Shown: positions 26,342 to 58,839 of the stretch, piece by piece
How the letters are laid out: every line of letters begins with the position of its first letter
Position numbering within the stretch: the stretch's first letter is position 1
Assembly: GCA_002426495.1 (NCBI GenBank)
Contig: DIQC01000089.1
Coordinates: 28,728-92,727 of the forward strand
From: Thermacetogenium sp. UBA5472
GTDB lineage: Bacteria; Bacillota; DSM-12270; Thermacetogeniales; Thermacetogeniaceae
Length of the DNA stretch: 64,000 bases
Reading direction: 5' to 3'
Translations under genes and position numbers: made by a program
The notes under the pieces: model-generated
What the model was told of the DNA's origin: nothing
The model's input: only the letters and a program-made list of their open reading frames with translations
The model's database searches: none

Positions 26342-26358
26342 ACAATTAATTAAATAGT

Positions 26359-26458
26359 TTTTCTCCGAGTCCACGAGCCTGTTGTTTTTAACTATGGCTG
26401 GCGGACCGTTAGGGTACATTTGGAAACGAGTGTGCCTCCCATTGCGGAAAGGAGAAGC
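26359..26458 (+). ncRNA. Moco/Wco (tungsten cofactor) riboswitch-like motif (RF01055-like), lacking P3
   Basis: TTCTCCGAG...CCTG...TATGG...GGAC CGTTAGGG TACATTTG-GAAA-CGAGTGTG CCTCCC-ATTGC-GGAAAGGAGAA: P1 TTCTCC/GGAGAA, GTCC/GGAC pairing, GNRA-capped P4, hallmark GCCTCCC...GGAAAGG. Recognised by eye. Confidence 0.8.
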
Positions 26459-26470
26459 GTACGATAATTA

Positions 26471-27993: not shown

Positions 27994-28875
27994 AACCCGC
28001 AGATATTTCCGCACAGAAATACTGCTACCAATCGCACCTAAAAGAACTCCAAGTCCCAGCAAAATACCATATATTATCAACATATCACTGCTATCTGTTA
28101 CCAGAGGCAGGAATGTGATTGCTTGCTGAAGTTTCATGGTCAGTGTTCCGTATGATAAATAAAGAACACCCACAGCCAGCAGAGCACCTACGAACCCGAG
28201 AATAACTCCCTCCAGAAGAAATGGCCAGCGCACAAACCAATCTGTGGCTCCTACATATTTCATAATATTGATCTCTTTGCGCCTGGCATAGAATGTCAGC
28301 CGAGTTGTGGTAGCGATTAGGAAAATAGCGCTAACTGCCAAAAGCACTATTACAATCAGTCCAATAATGCGCACCCATTCGGTCAGGGCGAAAAGTTTTT
28401 CTACCACACCCTGCTCATAGCGCACATTATCTACTCCGGGAAGTCTTTCGATCTCAGCAGCTGCAGCCCCCACTTCACGGGGATCTCCGGTTTTGATTTT
28501 ATAGGCATTAGGAAGAGGGTTTTCCTCGCTTAAGCTGCCCAGATCGGAGCCTTTACCCATCCACCCCTCCAACAATTCCAGGCCTTCATCCGGAGAGACG
28601 AAAACTACCTCTTTAACACCTGATATCCTATTAAAACTAGGCTCCATAGAATGGGCTTCATTTTCCGATATGTCATCCTCTAAATAGACCATAATTTCGA
28701 CATTTGATTCTACTGTATTCGCAATTTGATCGATATTAATCATCAGGAGCATTCCGATGCCCAAAACGAACAGCGAGATAGCTGTAGTCCCTGCTGCCGC
28801 AAAATTCAGCAGGCTATTACGTTTCAGGGAACGAAAGACCTCCTGAAAAATATAATTAATTTTTCTAAGTGGCAT
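27991..28875 (-). CDS. ftsX: Cell division permease FtsX
   Basis: [33 protein letters not shown], four TM segments; downstream of ftsE; start placed at ATG 28875. Confidence 0.95.
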
Positions 28876-29551
28876 TGGCGTATACACCCCGTTGCTCATC
28901 ACGCACGACTTGCCCGCAGTTCATAGCAATAACCCGCTGGCGCATGACATCGACTATTTCTTTAGCATGTGTTGCAATGATCACTGTAGTCCCTTGTTCG
29001 TTAATATCTCGAAAGCAATCCATTATCCCCCAGGATGTATCAATATCCAAATTGCCGGTAGGTTCATCTGCAATAATTATTGAAGGCTTATTGACCAGTG
29101 CTCGGGCGATGGCTGTCCGCTGCTGTTCGCCACCGGAAAGCTGCGTTGGGTAGTCGTCCAACCGTTTCTCCAGGCCAACCAGTTTAGCAACTTCTGGCAC
29201 CCTAGCCGTGATCTCTGACCTGCCTGCACCCACCACTTTCATCGCAAAAGCCACATTTTCGAAAACTGTGCGATCGCTCAGCAGTCGGAAATCCTGAAAA
29301 ACCATACCTATCTGACGGCGCAAATAAGGCACATCTCGTGATCTCATCCTGATCACACTGCGTCCGTCGATATAGATCTGTCCTTTAGTAGGCAATTCCT
29401 CTCTAAAAATCAGCTTGATCAGCGTTGATTTTCCTGCTCCACTTGGTCCTACGATAAAGACAAATTCTCCTGTTTCGATCTGCAAAGATACCCCCCGGAG
29501 TGCATTAACTCCATTGGGGTAAACTTTCGATACATTGAAAAAGCTGATCAC
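28865..29551 (-). CDS. ftsE: Cell division ATP-binding protein FtsE
   Basis: [34 protein letters not shown]. Confidence 0.96.
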
Positions 29552-29715: not shown

Positions 29716-30660
29716 TTATGTCTGGGAACGCTCTATTACGCGACCCACAGCAGCGACAATATTTTTTGCTGTCAGCCCGCAGACTTCCAGAAGCTGCTCA
29801 GGGGTACCCGACTCCCCAAAACGATCCATGACCCCTACCCTCTCCAAGGGAACCGGATAGTTCTCACAGAGAACTTCGGCAACCGCACTCCCTAACCCAC
29901 CGTAAATGGAGTGCTCCTCTGCAGTGACCACAGCTCTTGTTTTCCGTGCCATTTGTATAATTGTCTCCTCATCTAGAGGCTTAATAGTAGAGACATTGAC
30001 AACAGCAATTTCAATTCCCTCTGCGGCAAGCAATGACGCCGCTTCCAATGCCCTGGAAACCATGATCCCAGCAGAAAAAATCACAGCATCGCTTCCATGG
30101 CGCAAGGGCACCGCCTTGCCAATTTTAAACTGATAATCCTGATCCAGTATTTCGGGAAATGCAGGCCGCCCTAACCTAATGTAGACTGGGCCCTTCATCT
30201 TAACAGCGGCAGTTACTGCTTGGGCCGTTTCCACAGCATCTGCAGGAACTATAACCGTCATATTGGGGAGTGTCCGCATTAAAGAAATATCTTCAATTGT
30301 TTGATGGCTAGCCCCATCCTCTCCCACACTAACCCCGGCATGGGTAGCGATAATCTTTACATTTAAACCCGGATAAGCGATAGCATTGCGCACCTGGTCA
30401 TAAGCCCGTCCGGTGGCAAAAACCGCAAAAGTACTGGCACAGGGAATCTTACCCGCCAGAGCAAACCCAGCAGCTGTACCCATCATATTCTGTTCCGCAA
30501 TACCCATATCAAAAAAACGCTCTGGATAGCATTTTGCAAACTCATTGGTTTTTGTGGATGGTGACAGATCCGCATCCAGCACAACCAGTTCTGGGCAGCT
30601 TGCTCCTAACTCAGCTAAAACCCTTCCATATGCCTCACGTGGAGAGCTCTTCTTCTGCAT
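29716..30660 (-). CDS. Transketolase, C-terminal subunit
   Basis: GIAEQNM, GEDGASHQ, YIRLGR, VTAEEH, GGLGSAVAE. Confidence 0.95.
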   Translation of the reverse strand: MQKKSSPREAYGRVLAELGASCPELVVLDADLSPSTKTNEFAKCYPERFFDMGIAEQNMMGTAAGFALAGKIPCASTFAVFATGRAYDQVRNAIAYPGLNVKIIATHAGVSVGEDGASHQTIEDISLMRTLPNMTVIVPADAVETAQAVTAAVKMKGPVYIRLGRPAFPEILDQDYQFKIGKAVPLRHGSDAVIFSAGIMVSRALEAASLLAAEGIEIAVVNVSTIKPLDEETIIQMARKTRAVVTAEEHSIYGGLGSAVAEVLCENYPVPLERVGVMDRFGESGTPEQLLEVCGLTAKNIVAAVGRVIERSQT

Positions 30661-30696
30661 GATTACTTCTTCCCCCTTTTGACTTTCGGCTCCATA

Positions 30697-31539
30697 TCAA
30701 ACATCTATAATACCAATTTCGTCCAGTGCTTGTGCGGCTTGTTTTGCATCTGGTGCATTGCCATGCCAGCCAGCTACGTCTTCCATAAAAGAAACCCCTT
30801 TTCCTTTGACAGTTTTAGCAATGATCATTGCTGGCTGGCTTTTAACTCCTGCAGCCCAGTTAAAGGCATCAATCAGTTCAGGAATGTCATGGCCATCCAC
30901 CTGACGCACAGCCCAGCCAAAAGCCTGCCACTTTTCAGGGAAAGGTAGAGGAGACATTACCTCATCGATAGCGCCATCGATCTGCAGGCCATTATAGTCA
31001 AGAACCGCAGTGAGATTATCTGACTTATAGTGGGCAGCGGCCATAGCTGCTTCCCAGACCTGGCCCTCCTCACATTCGCCATCCCCCAAAAGGACATAAA
31101 CACGGTAATCCCGTTGGTCCAGCTTAGCTGCCAGTGCAGTTCCCAACCCCATCGATAATCCCTGCCCCAGGGATCCTGTCGAGGCCTCTACCCCGGGCAA
31201 TTGTCCTTTGGCCGGATGTCCCTGCAGTCTCGTCCCCAACTTCCTCAGAGTCAACAACTCCTCCCTGGGAAAGAAACCCCGCTCTGCCAGTGCTGCATAA
31301 AGAAGTGGGGCAGCATGTCCTTTGCTTAAAATAAATCTGTCCCGTTCGGACCATTCAGGATCTTCAGGCTGCAAACGCAGCACATGAAAAAATAATGCCG
31401 TCACTATCTCCACACTGGAAAGGCTGCCACCCGGATGGCCTGATCCCGCTTCGGTCAGCATCTCGATAATATCTCTTCTGATAAGCTGTGCCTTTGCCTC
31501 CAAATCCCTGATCTCCTGTTTGTCAGCTTCTGCCATCAT
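30697..31539 (-). CDS. Transketolase, N-terminal (TPP-binding) subunit
   Basis: SGHPGGSLS, DRFILSKGH, LQGHP, GSLGQG, GDGE...N TPP motif. Confidence 0.95.
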   Translation of the reverse strand: MMAEADKQEIRDLEAKAQLIRRDIIEMLTEAGSGHPGGSLSSVEIVTALFFHVLRLQPEDPEWSERDRFILSKGHAAPLLYAALAERGFFPREELLTLRKLGTRLQGHPAKGQLPGVEASTGSLGQGLSMGLGTALAAKLDQRDYRVYVLLGDGECEEGQVWEAAMAAAHYKSDNLTAVLDYNGLQIDGAIDEVMSPLPFPEKWQAFGWAVRQVDGHDIPELIDAFNWAAGVKSQPAMIIAKTVKGKGVSFMEDVAGWHGNAPDAKQAAQALDEIGIIDV

Positions 31540-32593: not shown

Positions 32594-33680
32594 TTATAAA
32601 CGAAGATAGGACTCGATAAAGACGTCAATCTCCCCATTCATAACAGCCTGGATATTTCCAACTTCCACAGAGGTGCGGTGATCCTTGACCAAGGTGTAGG
32701 GCTCAAAAACATATGAGCGAATCTGATTACCCCAAGCTATCTCCCTCTGTTCTCCTCGCAGTTTGGCGAGTTTTTCCTCCTGTTCGCGCCTTTTCAACTC
32801 CAGTAGCTGTGAGCGGAGCATATTCATTGCTCGCGTTCGGTTAGACAGCTGGGATCGCTCAATCTGACACTGCACTACGACTCCTGTGGGAAGATGAGTG
32901 ATCCGCACAGCTGAGTCTGTTTTATTCACATATTGCCCTCCGGGGCCACTTGCCCTGTAGGTATCTATATGCAGGTCATCTGAGTTGATCTCAACTTCCA
33001 TATCCTCCTCTACCTCAGGGATCACATCCACTGAAGCAAATGAAGTATGACGCCTTCCCGATGAATCAAATGGAGAATTGCGTACCAGCCGGTGCACACC
33101 TCTTTCAGCTTTCAGATAGCCATATGCATTCCTACCTGTGACAAGAAAAGTGATGCTTTTAATTCCCGCCTCATCACCAGCAAGATAATCAAGCACCTCT
33201 ACATTGAGACCTTGCCGGACCGCCCAGCGTCCATACATGCGGAAGAGCATTCCCACCCAATCCTGAGCCTCTGTGCCTCCTGCCCCGGCATGCAGAGAAA
33301 CCAGAGCATTCCTCTTATCAAGGGGGTCATTAAATAGGTTTTCCTGCTCCCACTTTTCTACAGCAGAAGAAAGTTTAGATAACCCATCCGTAAGTTCACC
33401 GGCCAGTTCCGGATCCCCAGACTCCTCGCTCAATTCCCAGACAACATTAAGCTCCTCATAATCTCCACTGAGCTTCTGAAAGCGTGTCAGGTCATCTTTG
33501 AGCGCATTTGCCTCCTGAAGCAGCTTTTTCGCTAAATCAGGTTCCCCCCAGAAATCAGGGTTTACCATCAGTTTTTCAATTTCTTCTAATTTATTCGCTT
33601 TGGCCTCCAGGTCAAAGTGAACCCCTCAATTCCTGTAATTTTTGTTCTAATTCTTTCAGTTCTCTCTTGTATTCATTCAA
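32594..33680 (-). CDS. prfB: Peptide chain release factor 2, two frames joined by a +1 frameshift
   Basis: TTG start at 33680 gives 22 codons MNEYKRELKELEQKLQELRGSL to CTT-TGA-C; the +1 frame continues DLEAKANK... into the 324-aa ORF with SPF anticodon motif and GPGGQ. Confidence 0.96.
33611..33626 (-). other. Programmed +1 ribosomal frameshift cassette of prfB
   Basis: Minus strand AGGGGT-TCA-CTTTGAC: internal SD plus the slippery CTT TGA C site. Confidence 0.95.
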
Positions 33681-33714
33681 AACAAAATCACCCCTATTCC
33701 AATAAAAATCGACA

Positions 33715-34881
33715 TTATCTCGACATTTCAGCCTGTGTACGTGCTTGATGGTAATTAATATCAATTGTGCTGCCTATACCATAACCTGCTCTTACTCGAA
33801 ACCCCGTCTTTAATTTGATTGCTACAGCTACCCTATCAATCATTTTTTCAAGAATAGCAGGCTGTTTGACCTTAGTTATAACAGCATATTCATCCCCGCC
33901 GATCAGGGCAACTAGATCATAATTTCTATCATTGGCGAGTTCGCCTCTAACCAGGCCGCGGATCAACTGTAAAATGGATACCTTTATGTTTTGAACCTCA
34001 TACTCAGTATGCATTTTTACATAACTGCCGAAATTCCTCAGATCAAAGAGAATCGCCGATTCCTTGCCGGTCAGTGATACTCCTAAAACACCCAATCGGG
34101 GGTCATCTCTATCTGTAATCCCGATTACCAGGTCACGTACTACCTCGTATTCTAGCCGCTGAGATCCCACACCCAGACAGGTATAGCCTTTAATTTTCCT
34201 TTCGATGGCACACAACTGGTCAAAAATAGCAACCAACTGGGCCAGGTTGCCGCCTAGCACCGCATACTGTGCCGATTTGTAGTTTAAAATGTCTGATCTG
34301 ATAACACTGTTGATACTTAGATCATCACAGACCAGGTTCAAAGTAGGCGACTGGATCTTGACATGATGATGCATGGCTATAGCCTCAAGAACTTCCTGAG
34401 AACAATGATGCTTTTTCGCAATCTGGTAACTGACTTCGATATGAGTATGGAAAGGCACCGTCCACTCCGCCCAATTCATTCCCTGATAGCGGCGTAAATG
34501 AGTAGGCACCTCCCCCTTACGGACCACAGAGAAGCTAAAAAACCTGTCATCCACTTCTTTTCCTTTGCCCACATCATGAAGGATGGCTGCGTCGACTAAT
34601 TCCTCTCTCGTTATCTGCAAAACATCCAAAACGCTATTCGAAATAGACGCTGCCTTTTCTAACATGCGAAAAGTGTGGTGTAACTGGTTTTCCCCCGCTG
34701 AAACTACATCAGAGAGAGGCAATAGTTCCTTAATCTGATATATTCTTTCCACATAGGGAACTATCTTTGAGTTAAACACTTGTAGCAGTGTTTGATAAAA
34801 AAGCTCTCTGCTGGCAGGATACTCTTTATCCTGACAAAAATCATGCTGCTCTTCTTTGTCGTCCGTGGCCCCGTGTTCCAT
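33715..34881 (-). CDS. HD-domain protein fused to a divergent GGDEF-like/palm domain
   Basis: QLHHT(68-69), AAILHDVGK(102-103), FHTH, AIAMHHH(171-173), VAIFD(221); C-terminal AILFDLRNF(280)...LVALIGGDEYAV(328-331)...RAGYGIG. Confidence 0.8.
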   Translation of the reverse strand: MEHGATDDKEEQHDFCQDKEYPASRELFYQTLLQVFNSKIVPYVERIYQIKELLPLSDVVSAGENQLHHTFRMLEKAASISNSVLDVLQITREELVDAAILHDVGKGKEVDDRFFSFSVVRKGEVPTHLRRYQGMNWAEWTVPFHTHIEVSYQIAKKHHCSQEVLEAIAMHHHVKIQSPTLNLVCDDLSINSVIRSDILNYKSAQYAVLGGNLAQLVAIFDQLCAIERKIKGYTCLGVGSQRLEYEVVRDLVIGITDRDDPRLGVLGVSLTGKESAILFDLRNFGSYVKMHTEYEVQNIKVSILQLIRGLVRGELANDRNYDLVALIGGDEYAVITKVKQPAILEKMIDRVAVAIKLKTGFRVRAGYGIGSTIDINYHQARTQAEMSR

Positions 34882-34913
34882 GGGTCCACCCCCTAAATAT
34901 TATTAGGTAACAC

Positions 34914-37583
34914 CTACCTACCACAGCAGCGTTTATATTTTTTGCCGCTTCCGCAGGGACAGGGATCGTTTCTCCCCACTTTGGGGCCTACCCTTCTCGG
35001 TGTCCGCTCTGTTTCCTCACCGCGGTTTTCAACCACATGACTCACTCGCTGCTCCTGCTCTTGCGGAACCAGGCGCACCTTGTAGAGGTAGCGTACGACA
35101 TCTTCCTGAATAGTATCGATCATCTCTTGGAACATATTATAGGCTTCGAATTTATATTCGACTAATGGGTCCTTTTGGCCGTAAGCTCTCAACCCGATCC
35201 CTGTGCGCAGTTGATCCATCGCATCAAGGTGGTCCATCCACTTGCTGTCAACAACCCGTAGCAGTATAAAACGCTCTAGATCCCGCATGGCCTCAGAACC
35301 TAATTCATCTTCCCTGGCCTGCCAGTGATCCAGCGCTTCATCTATCAACCGTTCTTGAATATCTTCCCGGGAACCGAGTTCCTGCAGTTCACTGAAAAAA
35401 ACCGCACCCTCTCTGAGAAAGCTCTGTTCCCCATACTTGATCAAACTCTCTAAATCCCATTCCTCAGGGTATTTGCCCTCTGCTGTATAACGCTCAACAG
35501 CAGCTGCAATAACACCTGTGACCATGTCTTGCAGTGACTCCTGTAAATCTTCGCCCATCAGAACCCGGCGCCGCTGACTGTAGATAACCTCTCTCTGCTG
35601 GTTCATCACATCATCATATTCCAAAACATTTTTACGCATTTCAAAGTTGCGGTTTTCTACCTTCTTTTGTGCATTTTCAATAGAGCGGGTTACCAGCGAA
35701 TGCTCTACAGGGATGCTGTCATCCATCCCAATTTTATCCATTATCCCAGAGATATTATCTGCACCAAATAGACGCATAAGGTCATCTTCCAGTGAAACAT
35801 AGAAACGTGAAGAACCGGGATCACCCTGGCGTCCGGCACGGCCCCGCAGCTGGTTGTCGATCCGCCTGCTCTCATGGCGTTCAGTGCCTATGATATGCAG
35901 GCCGCCTAAATCAACTACCTGCTTATGCTCAGCATCTGTCTCGTTTTTGAATTTGTCTACTAAACGGCGGTATTCCTCACGAACAGATGCAACCTCCTCA
36001 GATGAGGGGGTGCCATATTCAGCCGCTTCCGCCACAACCTCCGGAGCAGACCCCTTGCGCAGCGATTCCTCTTTGGCCTGGTATTCAGGATTACCCCCCA
36101 GAATTATATCAGTTCCACGTCCGGCCATATTGGTTGCTATCGTCACCATGCCAATCCTGCCCGCCTGAGAAACAATCGTCGCTTCCTGTTCATGGAACTT
36201 TGCATTCAACACCTGATGGGGAATTCCCTGTTTCTTTAATAATTTACTCAGAACCTCCGATTTCTCGATGGAAATCGTACCTACCAGCACCGGTTGGCAG
36301 GTCTCATGACATTGTACTATCTCTTCTACACAGGCAGCAAATTTTCCTTGCTCTGTTCGATAAATTGCATCAGGAAAGTCATGTCGAATCATGGGTTTAT
36401 GAGTCGGAATCACTACTACATCCAAACCATATATTTTGCGAAACTCCTCTTCCTCAGTAGCGGCGGTACCGGTCATCCCAGCCAGTTTATTATACATGCG
36501 GAAGTAGTTCTGGAAAGTGATCGTAGCCAGTGTCTGAGACTCTCGCTCGATAGTTACCCCTTCTTTGGCTTCAATGGCCTGGTGCAGTCCTTCACTGAAA
36601 CGCCTGCCTTGCATCAGACGCCCAGTAAACTCGTCTACAATAATAACTTGCCCGTCCTTGACCACATAGTCCCGGTCACGCTTCATCAAGGCATGAGCGC
36701 GCAGCCCCTGATAAACCTGATGCGCCAAATCTAAATTTGCCTCATCGGAAAGATTATCAACGCCCAAAAGTTTTTCCGCTCTATGGTTTCCCTCTTCGGT
36801 CAAAGCAACTGTGTGCAGCTTTTCATCCACCTGATAATCTGTTTCCTTTTGCAGCTTAGGAATCACCTGCGCCACCCTATAATAAAGGTCGGTCGGTTTA
36901 TCCGCCTGTCCGGATATGATCAACGGAGTACGTGCCTCATCGATCAAAATACTGTCCACCTCATCGACAACAGCAAAGTTGAGCTCACGCTGCACCATCT
37001 CAGAGCCCCGCATAGCCATATTGTCCCGTAAATAGTCGAAACCGAACTCATTGTTGGTGCCATAAATAACATCAGCATTATAAGCAGCTCTGCGCTCTTG
37101 TGCATCCAAGCCGTGGACAATCAAACCCACATCGAGTCCGAGAAAGCGATAAACACCGCCCATCCATTCGCTGTCCCGTTTGGCCAGGTAGTCATTGACG
37201 GTGATGATATGCACCCCTTGGCCAGACAGAGCATTGAGGTAGGTAGGCATTGTAGCCACCAGTGTCTTTCCTTCACCAGTTTTCATCTCGGCAATTCTTC
37301 CCTGGTGCAAAACCATACCACCCATCAGCTGCACATCAAAGGGACGCATTCCCAACACTCTCAGCGATGCCTCCCGAGCAACCGCAAAGGCTTCAGGCAG
37401 CAGATCATCGAGGGTTTCACCATCAGCAAGGCGCTCCTTGAACTCTACAGTTTTTGCCCGCAAACCCTCATCAGACAAGGCCTTGGCCTCCGGCTCCAGG
37501 CCATTAATTACATCAACAGTCTTTTGTAAGCGTCTAACGTCCCGTGCATTATCGTCAAATAAGTTTTTTAACGCATTCAACAT
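34914..37583 (-). CDS. secA: Preprotein translocase ATPase SecA
   Basis: [49 protein letters not shown]-terminal [19 protein letters not shown]. Confidence 0.99.
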
Positions 37584-47425: not shown

Positions 47426-47501
47426 TGGAGCTGATGGTCGGATTTGAACCGACGACCTGCTCATTACGAGTGAGCTGCTCTGCCAACTGAGCTACATCAG
47501 C
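47426..47501 (-). tRNA. tRNA-Thr (anticodon CGT)
   Basis: GCTGATGTAGCTCAGTTGGCAGAGCAGCTCACTCGTAATGAGCAGGTCGTCGGTTCAAATCCGACCATCAGCTCCA: 76-nt cloverleaf, TTC loop, encoded CCA. Confidence 0.98.
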
Positions 47502-58603: not shown

Positions 58604-58627
58604 ATAGTATATATTAATGCGAACCCA

Positions 58628-58814
58628 GTAACGCTGAATTCTCCGGGGGGAGAAACGGGGAAACCAATCAACGGGGTGAATCTTCGCACTCAAATTATTT
58701 TCAGATAACAATATTGAGTTGTTATCTGATATATGTGGATAGATTTGAGTGTAAAGTAGGGTTACCTTACAACCCGAATCCGACAGCTAACCTCGCAAGC
58801 GTGGGCAAGGAAGG
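58628..58814 (+). ncRNA. Cyclic di-AMP riboswitch (ydaO/yuaA class)
   Basis: Conserved blocks ACGCTGAA, CGGGGAAACC, GGGGTGAATC, GTAGGGTTAC, CCCGAATCCGACAGCTAACCTCGCAAGCGT. Confidence 0.92.
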
Positions 58815-58839
58815 CAATTGCAAAATAATTAATTATGTC

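Follow-up and report, generated by a model that had tools for sequence, protein, structure and literature searches.

A divergent GGDEF-like palm joined to an HD domain between secA and prfB of Thermacetogenium: a candidate nucleotide-signalling enzyme

What would an HD hydrolase domain joined to a GGDEF-like palm make or break, and why should its gene sit between those for a secretion ATPase and a peptide release factor? The question is raised by a stretch of 64,000 nucleotides from Thermacetogenium sp. UBA5472 (assembly GCA_002426495.1, contig DIQC01000089.1, positions 28,728 to 92,727 of the forward strand), hereafter the window, in which an open reading frame (ORF) of 388 amino acids lies between secA and prfB. 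We call this protein, and its gene, X. An original prediction, made from the letters of the sequence, held that X both makes and degrades a second messenger other than cyclic di-GMP (c-di-GMP). We confirm the observation behind that proposal, and the interpretation is partly supported: judged from its sequence and structural models, X is best explained as a soluble two-domain nucleotide-signalling enzyme. Its parts and key residues, with the evidence for each, are these:

33715-34881, minus strand: coding sequence of X, the 388-aa HD plus GGDEF-like protein, with ATG at 34879-34881 and TAA at 33715-33717 (ORF list)
34705-34818, minus strand: helices of the N-terminal segment (residues 22-59), which pack against the HD domain (AlphaFold2 (AF2) models, alignment)
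34192-34704, minus strand: HD domain of HDIG type, residues about 60-230 (Pfam, NCBIfam, conservation, AF2)
33718-34155, minus strand: divergent GGDEF-clan palm, residues 243-388 (Foldseek, hhalign)
34042-34044, minus strand: codon of D280, at the position where GGDEF domains have their first metal-binding Asp (hhalign column mapping)
33889-33900, minus strand: codons of G328-G329-D330-E331 (GGC GGG GAT GAA), the active-site (A-site) motif GGDE[YF] (sequence)

The AF2 model of the full-length protein has a mean predicted local distance difference test score (pLDDT) of 85.8; residues 1-21, which vary in the alignment, have low pLDDT, and the short linker between the domains (residues 232-239) is of low confidence. 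No long hydrophobic stretch was seen in the sequence and the N-terminus models as soluble helices, no transmembrane predictor having been run. The residues named in the original prediction, including the stretches FD280LRNF, IGGD330EY, GSYVKMHTEYEVQ and RAGYGIG, all lie at the numbers assigned to them.

The N-terminal domain is, on sequence, an HD domain in which every ligand of the two-metal HD phosphodiesterases is present. The Pfam HD profile PF01966 matches it at E 2.9e-9 (37.7 bits against a cut-off of 22), and the NCBIfam HDIG profile TIGR00277 at E 1e-7 (31.7 bits against 27.6). We counted conservation, here and below, in an alignment of 41 homologues of X with identity down to 42%; the HD profile is matched by 39 of these family members. 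H69, D103, H145, H147 and H171-H173 are present in all 41, H102 in 40 and D221 in 39. The full ligand set that had been read from the window protein is conserved accordingly, except that H68, then paired with H69, is found in only 34 members, and the invariant ligand is H69. The invariant family motifs of the domain are GENQLHH, HDxGKGxExDD, HHHVK and DQLCAIERK. X fits the ligand motif H..HD..H..HH..D (39-41 of 41 per position) that a review of the HD superfamily (PMC8177086) gives for phosphodiesterases of the di- or trinuclear kind, PgpH, HD-GYP and Cas3 among them. An HD-GYP c-di-GMP phosphodiesterase was considered and ruled out: no member matches HD_5, and the sequence reads HHHVKIRP, without GYP.

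Foldseek searches with the whole model were swamped by the palm domain, and we therefore built a separate AF2 model of residues 22-236 (pLDDT 90.4, predicted template modelling (TM) score 0.87). It found no match in the PDB below E 1e-3, which suggests that this HD domain is structurally divergent and makes its fold ranking only a lead. The best four matches are all Listeria PgpH (4s1c/4s1b), at E about 1e-2 and TM 0.37-0.42, followed by a CCA enzyme, YqeK, YhaM and V-cGAP3. Membership of the PgpH type finds no echo elsewhere: X has no seven-transmembrane (7TM) module, and a PDB sequence search returned no match of the HD domain to PgpH. Searches of PDB sequences, with the single sequence or with a profile, gave weak matches only, and the best of them, to the designed helical repeats 6e9y and 5cwm, were discarded as composition artefacts of the N-terminal helices.

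The C-terminal domain, as modelled and aligned, has the GGDEF fold, both metal-acid positions and several invariant basic residues. In Foldseek searches of the PDB the palm matched the GGDEF cyclases WspR, ImcA, GcbC, PleD and others at E about 1e-4, GTP cyclohydrolase III (GCH-III; 2qv6) at E 1.8e-4 and the class III adenylyl cyclase Ma1120 at E 2.4e-3. An hhalign comparison with six true GGDEF domains gave a probability of 99.2% (E 1.7e-18, 140 columns), and the palm profile, searched against PDB sequences, matched only diguanylate cyclases (E 0.005-0.1). Together with the Pfam and NCBIfam matches of the HD domain, these results show that the proposed layout of an HD domain followed by a GGDEF-clan palm is real.

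The hhalign mapping places D280 at the first metal Asp and GGD330E at the GGDEF motif. D280 is found in 39 of the 41 homologues (Asn in the other 2), G328 in 39, G329 in 40, D330 in all 41 and E331 in 39, and both acidic metal sites are kept, as had been proposed. A lack of conservation at D280 and GGDE, which would have told against the original prediction, is thus not what the homologues show. The guanine-specificity segment of diguanylate cyclases is indeed gone: V288 takes the place of the Asn of 'ND' and Q297 that of the Asp of 'GD', the two guanine contacts (N335 and D344 in PleD). V288 and Q297 are invariant, as are K300, R308, R364, N376 and R381. Many diguanylate cyclases, though not all, carry an RxxD inhibitory site (I-site) five residues before GGDEF. 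A c-di-GMP inhibitory site at R319-x-x-D322, six residues before the GG, was tried for X and rejected: D322 is conserved, the Arg is present in only 24 of 41, and RxxD is not kept in the family. The retention of D280, D330 and E331, set beside this Arg, points to selection on the active site and not on the product-binding site. The conserved NFHxAR helix was set by hhalign, in global mode, against a non-catalytic part of the GGDEF C-terminus; alternatively, [DE]xN[FY]HxAR might be the counterpart of the cyclase ADxALYxAK, in which case R381 would stand for the phosphate-binding Lys.

Where the palm belongs within the GGDEF clan was addressed by Pfam scans of each of the 41 family members. The best whole-domain model is GGDEF_2 (PF17853), which matches 25 members over positions 11-111 of 116, at best with E 6e-4 and 20.1 bits (for a member scanned singly) against a cut-off of 24.5. 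GGDEF itself (PF00990, cut-off 23.8 bits) matches 16 members in the motif region only, with a best E of 0.01; in the PF00990/TIGR00254 test the window protein scored 12.3 bits against 37.4, below the curated threshold. GCH_III (PF05165) matches 14 members, with a best score of 19.9 bits against 21.3. The likeness to GCH-III that had been pointed out is thus real but sub-threshold, whereas the similarity to mCpol proposed alongside it was not found among the top 50 fold matches or in PDB sequence searches, the profile libraries used having no mCpol model.

Beyond the family itself, a scan of 1.84 billion representatives brought up nothing but regulators of the PucR family and canonical GGDEF proteins, at E 1e-7 to 1e-3. 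One PucR match, P0055, aligns with the whole palm at 90.8%; its segment SVVLFDIDDFKSYIKNKNELEIQHLK corresponds to SVILFDLRAFGSFVKxHTEYEVQxxK in X, and the two have in common the signature FDxxxFxxxhKxxxExEhQxxK. The PucR-type matches lack the GGDEF site and have LGNYF or KSDSF in its place, and the PucR-type regulator MabR has HGTWL there (PMC11617747). In sequence, therefore, the first half of the palm of X resembles a PucR-type domain, and its active-site hairpin resembles that of a working cyclase. No PucR N-domain or HTH_30 was found in X by Pfam scan, and X falls in no curated family beyond 'HD domain'; our literature search found no paper describing an HD-GGDEF architecture. Our verdict, from these sequence comparisons, is that X derives from the GGDEF/HD toolkit of nucleotide signalling and probably functions in the same manner.

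Natural variants bear on how the two sites are used. P0030, P0037 and the copy at locus L011 carry N280, E328 and A331 together, with EGDAY or EADAY for GGDEY. The joint loss of D280, G328 and E331 suggests that these three residues act as one site. These sequences keep D330, V288, Q297, K300, R308, R364, N376, R381 and every HD ligand. Conversely, P0043 has H102Y and D221N, P0042 has D221N, and both keep GGDEY.

The reading that we place first, and hold tentatively, is that X is bifunctional, one enzyme both making and breaking a nucleotide other than c-di-GMP. The palm would be catalytically active on a nucleoside triphosphate (NTP) with Mg or Mn and, since Val and Gln are invariant at the positions of the guanine-contact Asn and Asp, would not read that NTP as diguanylate cyclases read GTP. 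Its product could be a linear or cyclic (di)nucleotide, with an adenine-containing or mixed one the likeliest for the same reason. The fused HD domain would hydrolyse this product, and X would thereby control how much of this messenger, distinct from c-di-GMP, is present. We rank this reading first because selection appears to act on the A-site and not the I-site, because the sensor-only relatives lack the A-site, and because fusions of opposed make-and-break domains are common in this enzyme class. GGDEF-HD-GYP proteins (P0054, P0062 and P0063) were themselves recovered as remote matches. To our knowledge, the characterised palms with an intact metal site and an altered base pocket are enzymes (Cas10, mCpol, Hypr-GGDEF and GCH-III, with GdpP weakly so).

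One further element of the window bears on what the substrate might be:

58622-58816, plus strand: c-di-AMP riboswitch of the ydaO/yuaA type, scoring 77.8 bits (gathering score 38)

The riboswitch is 24 kb away from X, with no link between the two, but its presence indicates that the organism uses c-di-AMP signalling. With PgpH as the top fold match, c-di-AMP or pApA is the most concrete candidate for the HD substrate, albeit on thin evidence. A narrower version of the make-and-break proposal, which we consider unlikely, is that the palm is a catalytic form of the otherwise sensor-only PucR-type GGDEF_2 lineage and makes a non-guanine dinucleotide, adenine-containing or mixed and cyclic or linear, that a PgpH-like HD domain degrades.

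Several observations weigh against a make-and-break enzyme. No scanned member reaches the curated cut-off of GGDEF, GGDEF_2 or GCH_III. The Lys that follows the first Asp in diguanylate cyclases is replaced by the invariant G285 (hhalign mapping), the C-terminus of the palm is shorter than that of the cyclases and lacks their GRN end, the linker to the HD domain is short and modelled with low confidence, and X lacks the sort of coiled-coil stalk through which GGDEF domains pair up to cyclise their product. As to the hydrolase, the PgpH fold match is weak (E about 1e-2, TM about 0.4), and the nearest solved HD domain by sequence is that of the RNA exonuclease YhaM (E 0.012). Finally, the loss of the palm acids in P0030, P0037 and L011, while the rest of the palm and the HD domain are kept, argues for a role of the palm that does not involve catalysis.

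These points lead to an alternative that is doubtful on its own account and nearly as likely as the bifunctional enzyme, since a palm that senses or hydrolyses NTP in the manner of GdpP or PdeA/CC3396 would, by analogy, fit the data about as well. Here the HD domain would be the sole physiologically relevant catalyst, acting for example on c-di-AMP/pApA or another (di)nucleotide, and the palm would bind or slowly hydrolyse NTP to tune it. The precedents are documented: the GGDEF domain of GdpP/YybT is a weak ATPase without cyclase activity, and mutations in it lower the phosphodiesterase activity (PMC3164647), while CC3396 is controlled by GTP via a degenerate GGDEF domain (PMC2952852). The lineage with N280, E328 and A331, in which the other palm residues and the full HD site persist, would suit an accessory palm, as would the absence of a dimerising stalk. 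So would the closest whole-domain model, which is the sensor-type GGDEF_2 (25 of 41 members), the alignment of a PucR regulator at 90.8%, and the conjunction of PgpH as best HD fold match with a c-di-AMP riboswitch in the window. However, sensor-type GGDEF_2 domains lack the GGDEF motif, yet the motif is present in 39-41 of the 41 homologues of X. Moreover, P0043 and P0042 are changed at HD ligands and still keep GGDEY, and a purely regulatory palm would be pointless there.

The remaining alternatives turn on where X is encoded. As originally described, X runs in the same direction as its two neighbours, with gaps of 32 and 34 nucleotides (nt):

34914-37583, minus strand: secA, the upstream partner, which ends 32 nt before X
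32594-33680, minus strand: prfB (RF2), the downstream partner, with a TTG start at 33678-33680, 34 nt past X
33611-33617, minus strand: programmed +1 frameshift site CTT TGA C of prfB, preceded by AGGGGT
34886-34894, minus strand: Shine-Dalgarno-like AGGGGGTGG, 4 nt 5' of the X ATG and within the 32-nt secA-X spacer (sequence)
33694-33714, minus strand: vestigial C-terminal tail of X, in-frame CRFLLE plus TAG (translation, and DNA alignment with L001, L002, L004 and L006)

The Shine-Dalgarno-like sequence AGGGGGTGG is rated strong as read from the sequence. No terminator-like hairpin was found in either spacer flanking X, and the nearest promoter-like site lies upstream of secA, at 37646-37618. 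Both X junctions are bridged by contigs from two metatranscriptome runs, X4 (33034-34187 and 34269-36444) and X9 (33055-34052 and 34607-35378). These contigs fit a secA-X-prfB transcript and the co-transcription that had been predicted, although they are strandless and DNA carry-over is possible. X would then share with secA and prfB a housekeeping transcript that is made constitutively.

The 34-nt gap between X and prfB contains 21 nt of vestigial coding sequence, as seen from the translation and the DNA alignment. In homologues this stretch is still coding (in L001 it reads KHCRYLLE*; the tail consensus is KxxxFLxE), and X of the window ends at a lineage-specific TAA seven codons ahead of the ancestral stop, TAG, which itself lay only 13 nt before the prfB start. 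Since the seven in-frame codons past the TAA match the tail of the homologues, a recent nonsense mutation in the window lineage is indicated; P0002 (81% identity) ends at the same position as the window protein (QAEQSR). From the sequence, the conserved tail is either dispensable in this lineage or restored by read-through. As to prfB itself, the heptamer CTTTGAC has the same letters in four related loci.

The X family comprises 45 clusters at 90% identity (361-459 aa, 43-99% identity), all full length and of one architecture; clustering at 50% identity leaves two full-length representatives plus fragments, in an exhaustive scan of the 1.84 billion representatives. We found 29 X loci in GTDB, at one genome per species. 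Hosts are labelled Syntrophaceticus, Thermacetogenium, Thermacetogeniaceae, Thermincola and Phosphitispora, together with assorted metagenome-assembled genomes (MAGs) labelled 'Syntrophomonadaceae', 'Peptococcaceae' and 'Clostridia', so that X is, by its sequence matches, limited to a few anaerobic Firmicutes lineages. The closest locus to the window is that of a Syntrophaceticus MAG (SecA 92% identical), and window DNA is found in metagenomes from fermenters, biogas and landfill.

Related loci have, as a rule, kept X in its place between secA and prfB. X lies directly 5' of prfB almost always, in at least 20 related loci, and this position is kept across lineages whose SecA is 66-92% identical to that of the window. 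Thermacetogeniaceae-like loci have the order hpf-secA-X-prfB-yitT, and Thermincola and Phosphitispora (a complete genome) have secA-motA-motB-X-prfB-yitT. The order in Bacillus subtilis is presumably hpf-secA-prfB-yvjA (YitT family)-...-ftsE, from which X would be a lineage-specific insertion into an ancestral housekeeping cluster. The insertion of motA and motB is a second lineage-specific one at the same spot, and possibly hints at a link with motility. Departures from the usual order are few. In L018 secA-X is present without prfB, and in the divergent members L017 and L024 X adjoins a multihaem cytochrome gene and prfB is not there. In L011, from Thermoanaerobacterales bacterium 50_218, where X has the degenerate palm site (N...EGDAY), an insertion element follows X. 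The inserted or substituted genes are:

L019 4346-5873, and also in L015, L016, L020 and probably L021: motA and motB between secA and X
L017 2568-3578 and L024 7165-8142: genes for a multihaem c-type cytochrome and an NrfD-like membrane protein after X
L011 4901-7088: IS607-like element (serine recombinase plus TnpB-like ORF) between X and prfB, judged from translations

Two loci of the draft genome of Syntrophaceticus schinkii Sp3, L010 (1-921) and L023 (5990-6794), were considered as paralogues or a disrupted gene and rejected as such: their contig ends overlap by 550 nt at 98.4% identity. This overlap with indels, and the frameshift-like breaks in secA and prfB, point to assembly or sequencing errors.

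With these neighbours X might act on RNA, its HD domain being a nuclease or end-processor of the RNase Y, YhaM or CCA type and its palm a template-independent nucleotidyltransferase with a translation-linked function, an explanation that we regard as improbable. The HDIG signature of X, the best PDB sequence matches of its HD domain (YhaM at E 0.012 and a Cas3-type HD), the CCA-enzyme and YhaM structures among the top HD fold matches, and the conserved linkage to prfB and hpf beside secA are all consistent with such a role. However, all of those matches are weak, X has no KH, S1 or OB RNA-binding domain, and, the synthesis of cyclic oligoadenylate (cOA) aside, no palm of the GGDEF clan is known to lengthen RNA at its 3' end. 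The site may also simply tolerate insertions, because motAB was likewise inserted into what we take to be the ancestral hpf-secA-prfB-yitT cluster.

That X is a Cas10-like or mCpol-like defence polymerase making cyclic oligonucleotides for immunity is scarcely credible. In its favour, Cas10 likewise begins with an HD domain followed by a palm, and the HD domain of X has a very weak TIGR02578 match (E 0.17) and weak PADLOC Cas3 HD matches (E 0.014-0.11). Against it, the TIGR02578 score is 10.5 bits against 170, X has a single palm and neither Zn finger nor D4, and structures of Cas10 or mCpol are absent from the top 50 fold matches and from the results of PDB sequence searches. The position of X is fixed in a housekeeping operon, unlike mobile defence islands, and neither the neighbourhood in the window nor any of the 29 related loci contains a cas, CARF, effector or other defence gene. 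The analogy with Cas10 drawn in the original prediction is not supported, while its remark that no cas or effector gene lies near X stands.

Elsewhere in the window, a molybdenum/tungsten cofactor riboswitch (26351-26470, plus strand, 70.5 bits) and a single tRNA gene (47429-47501, minus strand, Rfam 73.2 bits) were found. Two adjacent ORFs of 314 and 280 aa (29716-31539, minus strand) resemble a split transketolase, and their neighbour (28865-29551) resembles an FtsE-like ABC ATPase, all as judged from translations.

If the narrower version of the make-and-break proposal holds, with a catalytic PucR-type palm, X would be a self-contained and previously unknown second-messenger module, built into the secA-prfB operon of bacteria that oxidise acetate syntrophically and of their relatives. 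Where the base pocket of a palm has been rebuilt around an intact metal site, the palm has repeatedly proved to be a maker of new nucleotide signals: within the GGDEF clan, Hypr-GGDEF reportedly makes cGAMP, Cas10 cOA, and mCpol decoy cyclic nucleotides. X joins such a palm to a two-metal HD phosphodiesterase in the order opposite to that of all described GGDEF/HD-GYP proteins, and does so as a sequence-isolated protein in a housekeeping operon, not a defence island. It also provides a sequence link between the catalytic GGDEF domain and the sensor domain of PucR type, with a bearing on the origin of the latter. If the palm is a regulatory NTP sensor only, the result would be a modest one, another phosphodiesterase with a degenerate GGDEF domain. 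The hosts of X include cultured or cultivable organisms (Syntrophaceticus schinkii Sp3, Thermincola and Phosphitispora sp. TUW77), so its function is directly testable.

Among known systems, X may be compared first with the GGDEF diguanylate cyclases (PF00990; PleD, WspR, GcbC, TpbB), whose fold it has and with which its first metal Asp, GG[DE]E[FY] and the preceding DLVA-x-x segment align. Unlike them, it scores below the model thresholds, has V288/Q297 and G285, no conserved RxxD and a shorter C-terminus, and carries as its N-terminal partner an HD domain instead of a sensor with a stalk. The GGDEF_2 domains of PucR/CdaR proteins (PF17853; MabR) have in common with X the beta1-alphaA signature FDxxxF..hK...E.EhQ..K; they sit between a PucR N-domain and a helix-turn-helix (HTH), whereas the palm of X is fused to an enzyme and keeps GGDE. 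GCH-III (PF05165; 2qv6) is matched over GGDEY...RxGYGxG, at profile positions about 157-235 of 246, but is a 250-aa archaeal enzyme with a profile longer than the palm of X. Cas10 and mCpol offer the same order of HD then palm and the GGD-acid motif, without a match to X in the sequence and fold searches made, and X has no CRISPR or defence context; mCpol (Panoptes) is a stand-alone minimal palm encoded next to a membrane effector, and the gene context of X is unlike that of a defence system.

On the side of the hydrolase, PgpH (a 7TMR-HD c-di-AMP phosphodiesterase) has the same two-metal ligand pattern and HDxGK signature, but X differs in having no membrane domain and a 40-residue insert after the HD motif. 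The GGDEF-HD-GYP proteins (P0054, P0062, P0063) are, like X, single chains with one domain from the GGDEF clan and another from the HD superfamily; they differ in their reversed order, their HD-GYP subtype (HD_5, HHExxDGxGYP) and their canonical GGDEF domain. GdpP/YybT (PAS-degenerate GGDEF-DHH/DHHA1) and PdeA/CC3396 (GGDEF*-EAL) differ from X in their DHH or EAL hydrolase, in the opposite domain order and in being membrane-bound or sensor-linked. Like X, however, both unite a phosphodiesterase with an atypical GGDEF domain, and in both that GGDEF domain binds NTP.

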